Shown in pieces: positions 15,638 through 18,600 of a DNA stretch of 64,000 nucleotides (position 1 is the stretch's first letter; each line of letters begins with the position of its first letter). A program made the position numbers. Origin of the DNA: Escherichia coli. GTDB taxonomy: Bacteria > Pseudomonadota > Gammaproteobacteria > Enterobacterales > Enterobacteriaceae. The stretch is taken from NCBI RefSeq assembly GCF_001677475.2, contig NZ_CP015229.1; one strand, written 5' to 3'.

Positions 15638-18600
15638 CGAAATTAGTTGCCGATCATTTAATCGCGGCAAACCTGGCAGGGCATGATTCTCATGGTATTG
15701 GCATGATCCCAAGCTATGTGCGTTCCTGGAGTCAGGGGCATCTGCAAATTAACCATCATGCCAAAATCGTTAAAGAGGCGGGGGCGGCGGTCACGCTCGA
15801 TGGCGATCGCGCATTCGGTCAGGTCGCGGCACACGAAGCGATGGCGCTGGGGATTGAGAAAGCGCATCAGCACGGTATTGCTGCCGTGGCGCTACATAAC
15901 TCGCATCATATCGGCCGTATCGGTTACTGGGCGGAGCAGTGTGCAGCGGCGGGGTTTGTCTCTATCCACTTTGTTAGCGTGGTCGGTATTCCAATGGTCG
16001 CGCCGTTCCACGGTCGCGACAGCCGCTTTGGCACCAATCCGTTCTGTGTGGTTTTCCCTCGTAAAGATAATTTTCCGCTGTTGCTTGATTACGCCACCAG
16101 CGCCATCGCATTTGGTAAAACTCGCGTCGCCTGGCATAAAGGCGTCCCCGTGCCGCCAGGTTGCCTGATTGACGTTAACGGCGTGCCGACGACCAATCCG
16201 GCGGTAATGCAGGAGTCGCCGTTGGGTTCGCTGTTGACCTTTGCCGAACATAAAGGCTACGCCCTTGCAGCGATGTGTGAAATTCTTGGCGGGGCGCTTT
16301 CCGGCGGTAAAACGACGCATCAGGAAACGTTACAAACCAGTCCCGATGCCATTCTTAACTGCATGACCACCATCATCATCAACCCGGAACTGTTCGGCGC
16401 GCCGGATTGTAGCGCGCAGACCGAAGCCTTTGCCGAGTGGGTAAAAGCCTCGCCGCATGATGAGGACAAGCCGATTTTGCTACCGGGCGAGTGGGAAGTG
16501 AACACGCGTCGCGAACGGCAGGAGCAGGGGATTCCATTGGATGCGGGAAGCTGGCAGGCCATTTGTGATGCGGCGCGGCAGATTGGTATGTCGGAAGAGA
16601 CGTTGCAGGCTTTCTGTCAGCAGTTAGCCAGATAAAAAAAGCCCGTCCAGTAACGGACGGGCAAACAAGGGTAACATAGGATCAATGAGGGTTAGAGCAT
16701 ATGCGTCTGTCGGCAAACAGACAGGGAAATACTTGTGCTGAACGTAGCGTAAACGCCTGATCCGTCCAACGGTTCGGATTTTGTAGGCCTGATAAGATGC
16801 GGTAGCGTCGCATCAGGCATTTGTTGCCGGATGCGGCGTAAACGCCTTATCCGTTCTACGAATTACTTATAAATTACCGCAGTACCGCTTAATTTATTGT
16901 TGTTGGTGGCGGAAGTAATGCTGTATCCACTAGCACCGGCTGCTGCCGCTTTCTCAGCCAGTTTTGCTTCCAGGGCATCGAGGGTGGATGCGCCATCGGC
17001 AGAAACCACGCCGATTTTATTCATGTTCTGTGCCTGGGATGCCGTTACCGGTTCCGCCGCGAACACGCCAAATGACAGAGTTGAAAGAGCCATAGCAGCA
17101 ACAACAGTATTGATAGTTTTCATAATTAATCTCTCGCAGGTGATTTTTGTATAAGTGACGTTGTTTCGTCGATGTGATGAGTATCACGTTTTTTTACGAG
17201 AGATAAAATAGAAGAGAATTGACCGCCTTGTTCAAATAAATTGATTGATATCTAACATACTGATAAACCATTTATTTGTTGTACTTATGGAATTGTTTTA
17301 TGCAGCGTGGCAGTCACAGCAGCGTTAAAGGCACGGAATGCCACGCAAAATACAAATTATACTCGCTATGCATCTCGCCAGTTGTAGTTAACGTAACTGG
17401 CTGTCTTTCGAACCTCTGAGATTATATCCTGTATAAGCTGGTTTTTGTAAATCTTTCTCCTGCTGACAATGAATGCATAAGCGCACGCCAGGAATGGCTT
17501 CCCGACGGGCTTGCGGGATGGGGGCACCGCACTCTTCACATTCATACAGGCTTTCGCCACGCGGAATTTCACCCCGAGCGCGGGCAATCGCATCTTCAAT
17601 TGTACTGTTGATCTGTTCGTTGACGGCGTCATCGTTAGCCCAACCGGATGCCATATCGTCCTCCCCATATCAATACTTGTACAGTTAAGTGTAGCTAATA
17701 TAGGGACGAACTCGGGCAGTTCAAGCGTCAGATCTCCGACCATTCCCGCAGCAGATTATGATAAAGATTAAGCAGCGACAGGATCTCTTCACTTTCGCCG
17801 TAGCGGCTTTTCAGCGACTGAATATTGTTGTCCAGTTCAAACAGCATGGCGCGCTTTTTATCATCGCGGATCATCGACTGGATCCACATAAATGATGCCA
17901 CTCGTACGCCGCGGGTTACGGGTGTCACGCAATGCAGGCTGCTGGAGGGATACAACACGAGATCGCCTGCCGGGAGTTTTACCCGATGTTGTCCGAAGGT
18001 GTCATTAACGACCAGTTCGCCGCCGTCGTAGCTTTGTGGATCGCTTAAAAACAGCGTGGCAGAAAGGTCAGTGCGCATCCAGCCGTTTTCTGGATGGCTG
18101 CGTACTGCGCCATCCACATGAAAACCATAGGTTTCATTGTTCTGATAGCGATTAAACAGCGGCGTGGAAAGGGTACGCGGCAAGGCCGCGGCAAAGAACA
18201 AAGCATGTTGGTTAACCGCGTTCAGCACCTCATTTTGCAGGGCGGCGTATAATGTGCTGCGGGTGTCGACCTGTTGATTGTTCTTAACTTGCGCACCTTG
18301 TGCGCCGGTGGTGACACGTCCATCCACCCATTCGGCTTGTTCCAGTTGTTCGCGAAACCGGGCGACGTCCTGTGGCGATAACACGCCGGGAATGTGGTAC
18401 ATCATACAAGTTCTCCAAAAAGTGGGGCCTGCGCCCCACATCTGAATCAGAAATGCATATTGGCTGTGAGCAAGAAGGTTCTTGGCTCGCCCGGGTGATA
18501 ACGGTAGCCGCTCTTGTTGATTGAGGCGACGTAATCGGTATCAAACAGGTTGTAGACGTTTAGCTGGAAGTCGAGATTGCGATTAACCCGATACCCCAGT

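Follow-up and report, generated by a model that had tools for sequence, protein, structure and literature searches.

What are the palindromes that lie between convergent genes in this stretch of the Escherichia coli chromosome, and what do they do there? The stretch, 64,000 nucleotides of contig NZ_CP015229.1 from assembly GCF_001677475.2, is hereafter called the window. The original prediction, made from the sequence, placed multiple repetitive extragenic palindrome (REP)-like units in two spacers, hcxB-ybiJ (16741–16860) and ybiT-ybiU (about 36640–36780), and called them ordinary for E. coli. Both gene pairs are named correctly, and both spacers hold such units: three in hcxB-ybiJ and a pair in ybiT-ybiU, recognized by Rfam models, by motif and by matches to reference REPs. 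We are highly confident that the two sites are ordinary members of the E. coli family of REPs and bacterial interspersed mosaic elements (BIMEs), located between convergent genes; sequence, Rfam and population data agree on this. Among strains, the REPs are end points of deletions, a site-specific target of an insertion sequence and the break points of one inversion.

Anatomy of the REP sites

The hcxB-ybiJ spacer, flanked by hcxB (15550–16635, +) and ybiJ (16863–17123, −), contains three REPs in alternating orientation (+ − +). They were compared by BLAST with the Y, Z1 and Z2 reference REPs used in PMC11208160. REP1 (16736–16771, +) is a degenerate unit of the Y type that matches the Y reference at 27/35 positions. 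REP2 (16782–16818, −) is of the Z2 type (33/37 to the Z2 reference, E 6e-9), and REP3 (16824–16860, +) is of the Y type (33/35 to the Y reference, E 6e-12). REP1 and REP3 are direct repeats of 78% identity with a spacing of 89 bp. The predicted hairpins of REP1, REP2 and REP3 have energies of −12.4, −15.6 and −14.4 kcal/mol (z −2.4, −4.6 and −3.1), and the whole spacer folds with a z of −3.8 on the minus strand and −5.2 on the plus strand. The Rfam model naRNA4 matches positions 16786–16856 on the minus strand, which is the transcribed, ybiJ-sense strand, with 67.2 bits against a gathering threshold of 59.5. REP3 forms the first hairpin of the match and REP2 the second. The cluster is a BIME-2-like array of the order Y(degenerate)-Z2-Y and not a chance palindrome; it carries the Y-S-Z2 unit described by naRNA4, and the number of its REPs ranges from one to three among strains.

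The ybiT-ybiU spacer lies between ybiT (35017–36609, +) and a ybiU-like gene (36848–38107, −). Its site is a BIME-1, or RIP, in which a Z1 REP and a Y REP of opposite orientations (+ −) stand tail-to-tail over an L linker with a predicted site for integration host factor (IHF). The whole composite, including the flanking inverted repeats TGATGACAAACGC and GCATTTGTCAGCA, spans 36648–36796 and is 82.6% identical over 155 bp to the BIME-1 of the K-12 rhlE-ybiA spacer. The Z1 REP (36670–36699, +) matches the Z1 reference at 29/30 positions (BLAST E 3e-10) and forms a predicted hairpin of −13.2 kcal/mol (z −3.8). The L linker (36700–36733) is identified by the Rfam model ES036/CssrF, which matches 36691–36733 (−) with 41.6 bits against a gathering threshold of 37.6. 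Within the linker, the IHF-like site ATTCAATATATTG at 36709–36721 (−) agrees with the IHF consensus apart from one mismatch; such a match alone is not significant, as the window holds 72 of them against 56 expected. The Y REP (36734–36771, −) has an intact tail half, with 36734–36752 matching the Y reference at 19/19 positions, and a corrupted head arm, which differs by a 2-bp deletion and substitutions from K-12 and from E7-1N7, the closest genome. The 103-nt core of the BIME-1 folds at −45 kcal/mol (z −5.5).

The original prediction regarded these two clusters as the only repetitive DNA in the window, which does not hold. A third REP-derived palindrome is located at 43379–43418 (+) in the fsaA-moeB spacer, where the 3′ half of a Z2 REP is fused to upstream sequence. 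Positions 43398–43414 match the Z2 reference at 17/17 positions (E 9e-5), and the predicted hairpin has an energy of −19.1 kcal/mol (z −2.75). This unit is a remnant. A full Y + Z2 BIME, making the spacer 103 bp longer, stands at fsaA-moeB in 6/30 evenly sampled genomes (~20%), and other genomes have an intermediate form. Other repeat families were sought by aligning the window to itself with BLAST and by fuzzy matching of the ERIC1R and ERIC2 primers; neither turned up anything but the REPs and one palindrome, and Rfam at a permissive cutoff (E up to 1) contributed just a weak STnc40 match. The palindrome, a perfect one of 30 bp (TTCTGCATGGTTATGCATAACCATGCAGAA) at 28227–28256 in the rhtA-dps spacer, belongs to no repeat family found here. 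The K-12 RefSeq feature table lists no REP features in this region.

The membership of the units in the REP family was judged against an imperfect palindrome of ~35 nt, GCC(G/T)GATGCG...CTTATC(A/C)GGCCTAC. REP2, REP3 and the Z1 REP conform to it at near full length, with the match counts given above; REP1, the ybiT-ybiU Y REP and the fsaA-moeB unit do so only in part or in degenerate form. With up to two mismatches allowed, the REP tail motif CTTATCMGGCCTAC occurs seven times in the window against 0.47 expected, a count reached in 0/100 shuffles. Every unit is positioned in a spacer between convergent genes, with the caveat that REP1 overlaps the annotated 19-codon ybiE. An 801-bp hcxB-ybiJ query matched 26,132 places (median 5 per genome) across 5,425 genomes, so that part of it is multi-copy, and a query joining the end of the insertion sequence IS621 to REP2-REP3 found a median of 30 places per genome. 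Five of the REP units form stem-loops with z values from −2.4 to −4.6, and both strands of the elements are predicted to form hairpins.

Strain variability and insertion of IS621

The comparison set comprised 5,426 complete E. coli genomes, which were studied with junction queries and evenly sampled rows. The spacers had been described as strain-variable and as sites of local recombination, and both descriptions are borne out. All three REP sites vary in the population, and the changes include REP-bounded deletions of 89 and 67 bp, insertions of IS621, one inversion, and breaks of collinearity with K-12 at BIMEs. In terms of REP copy number and orientation, the comparison that had been proposed, strains differ by one versus three REPs, by presence or absence of a BIME, and by one inversion. 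At hcxB-ybiJ, an allele with a single hybrid REP is shorter than that of the window by exactly one REP1-to-REP3 period (89 bp). It was found in 6/30 evenly sampled genomes and in ~1,106/5,426 by junction query (~20%).

The ybiT-ybiU spacer has at least five forms in the population. An 801-bp query from it is covered to 80% or more in one place in only 2,686/5,425 genomes. The forms were classified in 40 evenly sampled rows, with one representative of each class examined. The first is the intact BIME-1, as in K-12. The second, represented by O157 and BL21 and found in 3/40 rows, has lost 67 bp between copies of the micro-repeat ATCAGGC in the Z1 and Y REPs. The third has IS621 inserted where ATCAGGCCT meets ACGCAG, and both junctions show CT (8/40 rows; for example strain 2011C-4315). 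In the fourth, ybiU is absent and the BIME-1 is kept between ybiT and ybiV (7/40 rows). In the fifth, an island with a GH31 gene occupies the place of the region from the ybiT stop codon onwards (4/40 rows).

The ybiU-like gene of the window encodes a protein of 419 amino acids assigned to Pfam Gig2-like/DUF1479. This allele diverges from that of K-12 by ~25% at the DNA level over 36850–38300, and normal identity returns sharply at 38300. Of the 40 evenly sampled genomes, only the top two have an allele of the window type.

IS621 is a member of the IS110 family with a bridge-RNA recombinase, and its natural target is the 11-nt sequence ATCAGGCCTAC with a CT core (PMC11208160). The exact target occurs twice in the window, at 16783–16793 (−) in REP2 and at 36688–36698 (+) in the Z1 REP. 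Both copies are unoccupied, and the window is without IS621. In the Z1 REP, the insertion point lies between ATCAGGCCT and AC. The junction count of 1,602 genomes for IS621 at this REP is an upper bound, and spread sampling gives ~20%. At least 15 genomes, among them strain 12867 and O26 strains, have IS621 in REP2 of hcxB-ybiJ, directly after CTTATCAGGCCT. The junction query for REP2 (1,072 genomes) is inflated because IS621 copies in similar BIMEs elsewhere match it; the usable bounds are at least 15 and at most 276 genomes.

Strain 12867 (NZ_CP159877.1) also has a ~6-kb inversion of ybiA-dinG-ybiB-hcxB-ybiE. Its break points are in the Z1 REP of the rhlE-ybiA BIME-1 and in REP2 of hcxB-ybiJ (4950–5060 and 10150–11660 of the stretch retrieved from this strain). 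One IS621 is present at the ybiJ-side junction, and the rhlE side keeps only the 8-nt right-end terminus of IS621, CAGTATCT. The inversion looks like the footprint of an IS621-associated rearrangement.

The collinear counterpart of the window is located at ~822.9–885.0 kb of MG1655. Identity to K-12 is 97.4–98.1% in three collinear blocks and 98.3% in the 8 kb around hcxB-ybiJ; the top match in the comparison set is 98.0–98.8% identical to the window. In the dinG-fiu stretch, 89 of the 106 coding differences from K-12 fall on third codon positions, and the divergence is therefore natural and no artefact. Collinearity with K-12 is broken at two places only, both of which are K-12 BIME-1 sites. 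At the first, the ~140-bp BIME-1 (Y-L-Z1) of the K-12 ybiO-glnQ spacer is missing from the window, leaving an empty site at 24796–24800. This BIME-1, which is bounded by a TTAAG direct repeat, was found in 13/30 sampled genomes (~43%). At the second, between rhlE and dinG, a 2.8-kb segment of the window (9366–12173) stands in place of the K-12 BIME-1 and ybiA.

The 2.8-kb segment contains an open reading frame of 670 codons (9973–11985, +) with a SopA-like catalytic domain (Pfam SopA_C, 7e-15). In the annotation of O157 and O145 genomes the product is EspX2, a type III effector, and the segment is carried by 541/5,426 genomes.

A REP-free stretch of 19.8 kb (44200–64000) served as a control and is structurally uniform in 5,414/5,425 genomes. 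Given this uniformity and the variable REP spacers, structural change is strongly enriched at REP spacers, yet it also occurs elsewhere: the REP-free dgcI-rimO spacer (55710–55755) varies as well, which counts against our reading of the REPs as the seats of change. The insert at dgcI-rimO is a 953-bp cassette encoding a RelE/ParE toxin and a helix-turn-helix antitoxin, present in 5/30 sampled genomes (~17%) including O157:H7 FRIK2455. It is the sole common variant of the control region and is lacking from the window and from K-12.

Age, transcript context and candidate roles

Relatives of the hcxB-ybiJ array were found with a degenerate DNA pattern for the YbiJ C-terminus. E. albertii, E. whittamii, Escherichia sp. 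E1V33 and two further lineages, which are 92–94% identical to the window, all have the same three-REP array, and these five lineages share the decayed head arm of REP1. The three-REP array is therefore older than the divergence of these Escherichia species, and the one-REP allele of E. coli is a secondary deletion. Since the array is conserved in position across the genus, it is no young mobile insert. Near the ybiJ stop codon, the REP3 tail and the ybiJ-proximal flank are duplicated in tandem over 20 bp in E. albertii (ATCCAGCCTACGAATTACTG / ATCCGACCTACGAATTACTT). Outside the genus, NZ_BOQB01000696.1, a 328-bp contig of a 'Bacillus sanguinis' assembly, is 97.6% identical to 16767–17094 of the window, which covers REPs and ybiJ; contamination of the assembly with E. 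coli DNA is the likeliest explanation.

The hcxB-ybiJ spacer is more than a run of REPs, which amends the original prediction: it also includes the small RNA (sRNA) ZbiJ, the small open reading frame ybiE and the terminator of ybiJ. The equivalent of ZbiJ, also called asYbiE (K-12 b4814), was mapped by alignment of the K-12 annotation to 16634–16729 (−). ZbiJ has been validated as an Hfq-associated sRNA from the ybiJ 3′ untranslated region (3′UTR), and neither a transcription start site nor an RNase E site accounts for its 5′ end (Bar et al. 2021, PMC8175672). asYbiE represses the translation of rpoS and exists as species of ~350 and ~100 nt (Han and Lory 2021, PMC8545128). The only intrinsic terminator of the spacer is located at 16662–16641, followed by UUUUUUU, and is oriented for the ybiJ strand. 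ZbiJ forms the 3′ end of the ybiJ 3′UTR and ends at this terminator and its U-run. The ybiJ transcript thus reads, in order, stop codon, REP3, REP2, REP1, ZbiJ and terminator. Because the spacer also encodes ZbiJ and ybiE, the REP cluster is the part of the ybiJ 3′UTR that lies 5′ of ZbiJ, namely its first ~130 nt from the stop codon to ZbiJ.

The 19-codon ybiE (MRLSANRQGNTCAERSVNA*; 16701–16760, +) is annotated in K-12 and RefSeq, and its frame was read directly from the window, where it is intact. It is antisense to the 5′ part of ZbiJ and runs into REP1, the first 25 nt of which make up the last eight codons and the stop codon of ybiE. The stop codon is not kept in E. albertii, E. whittamii and E1V33, so the length of the frame is not conserved.

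We hypothesize, by analogy with other REPs, that the REP hairpins in the ybiJ RNA would block 3′-exonucleases and partly terminate transcription, and would thereby tune the ybiJ mRNA and read-through into ZbiJ. REP hairpins have been reported to impede 3′-exonucleases and to bring about partial termination that depends in part on Rho; REP325 both terminates transcription and stabilizes mRNA, and expression is higher in convergent gene pairs that have REPs (bioRxiv 10.64898/2026.03.23.713779). REP3 may furthermore stall terminating ribosomes and may lower the translation of YbiJ. On the ybiJ-sense strand its stem begins 9 nt past the ybiJ stop codon, and ribosome stalling has been reported for REPs within 15 nt of a stop codon (Liang et al. 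2015, as cited in PMC12306157). Analogy likewise suggests roles at the level of DNA, with gyrase as a candidate ligand of the BIME-2-like array and IHF as one of the BIME-1. It is also conceivable, if unlikely, that the REP array takes part in making ZbiJ/asYbiE. The 5′ end of ZbiJ maps 6–7 nt 3′ of REP1, beside a GU↓AUUU RNase E-like motif. The hairpins would then set how much ybiJ transcription reaches ZbiJ and would frame the processing site, and the one- and three-REP alleles would tune ZbiJ, and thus RpoS, by lineage.

Several further points weigh against these roles. The RNA-level roles of the present copies are extrapolated from published work on the family, in which REP effects depend on context and the effect on mRNA half-life is not uniform (bioRxiv 10.64898/2026.03.23.713779). 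About 20% of E. coli genomes keep one REP only at hcxB-ybiJ. The Y REP of ybiT-ybiU, taken by itself, no longer folds into a stable hairpin in the window lineage (z −0.33). Among seven Escherichia lineages, 27.5% of the alignment columns are variable in the REP zone versus 6% in the ZbiJ zone (Fisher p 3e-5), and none of the 68 predicted base pairs has a compensatory change; substitutions in stems mostly break pairs. From the fast drift of the REP zone and the absence of compensatory pairs, the exact sequence and structure of the array are weakly constrained. The position of the array is conserved and its exact sequence not. Selection that preserves the structure of the REP hairpins was considered, and cannot be claimed with covariation in none of the 68 pairs.

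The main rival to the proposed roles holds that the REPs are selfish or neutral relics, left by old insertions of REPINs or BIMEs, that serve the host in no way at these sites, and that their variation is decay together with by-product recombination. We consider this a serious possibility, though short of probable. It fits the fast drift, which is ~4.6 times faster per column in the REP zone than in the adjoining ZbiJ, as well as the lack of covariation. The degenerate state of REP1 and of the ybiT-ybiU Y REP agrees with it too, as does the frequency of the one-REP allele and of empty sites in healthy lineages. It sits less easily with the fact that the genus as a whole has retained the array, whose position and orientation have been kept since before the Escherichia species split. 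REP2 and REP3, moreover, still fold well, and published work describes effects of REPs on termination and mRNA stability at other loci.

According to a second alternative, the main role of the elements is at the level of DNA: the BIME-2-like array, by binding gyrase, and the BIME-1, by binding IHF, would relieve supercoiling between convergent transcription units. All three REP sites are situated between convergent genes, and the L linker matches ES036 and has an IHF-like site. Cleavage of BIME-2 by gyrase and binding of IHF to RIB/RIP elements are described in works listed among the references of PMC12306157. However, binding is a prediction, the IHF consensus match is not significant alone, and the Y arm of the BIME-1 is broken in the window lineage. 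We regard such a main role as possible but rather unlikely.

A third explanation, that REP3-REP2 yields a nucleoid-associated RNA of the naRNA4 type which condenses the chromosome with HU, is very improbable. In its favor, the transcribed ybiJ-sense strand matches RF02564 in sequence and structure. However, the Rfam model amounts to a Y-S-Z2 REP pair and so will match many BIMEs, and REP325/naRNA4 itself was without measurable nucleoid compaction (bioRxiv 10.64898/2026.03.23.713779). Finally, the notion that the palindromes are GC-rich inverted repeats that arose by chance, or else ordinary terminators, for which their position at gene ends and nothing else speaks, is refuted by the Rfam matches, the motif enrichment over shuffles and the matches to reference REPs, and it also fails on their multi-copy state in every genome, on their lack of a U-run and on the real ybiJ terminator being a separate hairpin.

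We thus retain the reading of ordinary REP/BIME family members with candidate roles in the ybiJ 3′UTR. REP and BIME elements, their roles in RNA and DNA, their variability among strains and their targeting by IS621 are all already established. What is added here is the third REP site, the context of sRNA and small open reading frame, the age of the array, and the frequencies of the REP alleles and of IS621. For annotation, the anatomy of the hcxB-ybiJ, ybiT-ybiU and fsaA-moeB spacers is now fixed. A validated rpoS-repressing sRNA and a small open reading frame overlap or abut the hcxB-ybiJ REPs. Two empty natural targets of the bridge recombinase of IS621, whose orthologues are filled in many strains, are recorded. 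Population frequencies are now available for the REP-bounded alleles, which could be used as markers for typing or be treated as natural experiments on regulation by 3′UTRs.

Comparison with known REP systems

The hcxB-ybiJ array resembles REP325 (naRNA4, Rfam RF02564) in that Y and Z2 units stand head-to-head over a short S linker in alternating orientation, and in that the array is transcribed within a 3′UTR. It is composed of three units, of which the third is a decayed Y, compared with six Y-Z2 repeats in REP325. Its S linker is shorter than that of REP325 by 6 nt, and the two outermost pairs of the Y stem are broken in the window lineage. The surroundings differ as well, as the hcxB-ybiJ array is located between convergent genes and 5′ of an sRNA, whereas REP325 lies inside an operon.

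The ybiT-ybiU site has the layout of BIME-1/RIP (RIB) elements: Z1-L-Y arranged tail-to-tail, an L linker of ~34 nt containing ATTCAATATATTG, and flanking inverted repeats. It departs from them in the corrupted head arm of the Y REP, so that the Z1 hairpin and the long Z1:Y tail pairing are all that is left.

Like the REP doublets mobilized by TnpA-REP in REPIN/RAYT systems, the inverted pairs REP2/REP3 and Z1/Y can form a long hairpin. No RAYT gene was noticed in the window, although no search aimed at one was made. Unlike recently transposed doublets, the hcxB-ybiJ array is orthologous across species, which argues against recent mobility there. The two targets in the window, in REP2 and in the Z1 REP, match the natural target of IS621 exactly, and other strains, with the CT core at both junctions, have IS621 at exactly these two positions.

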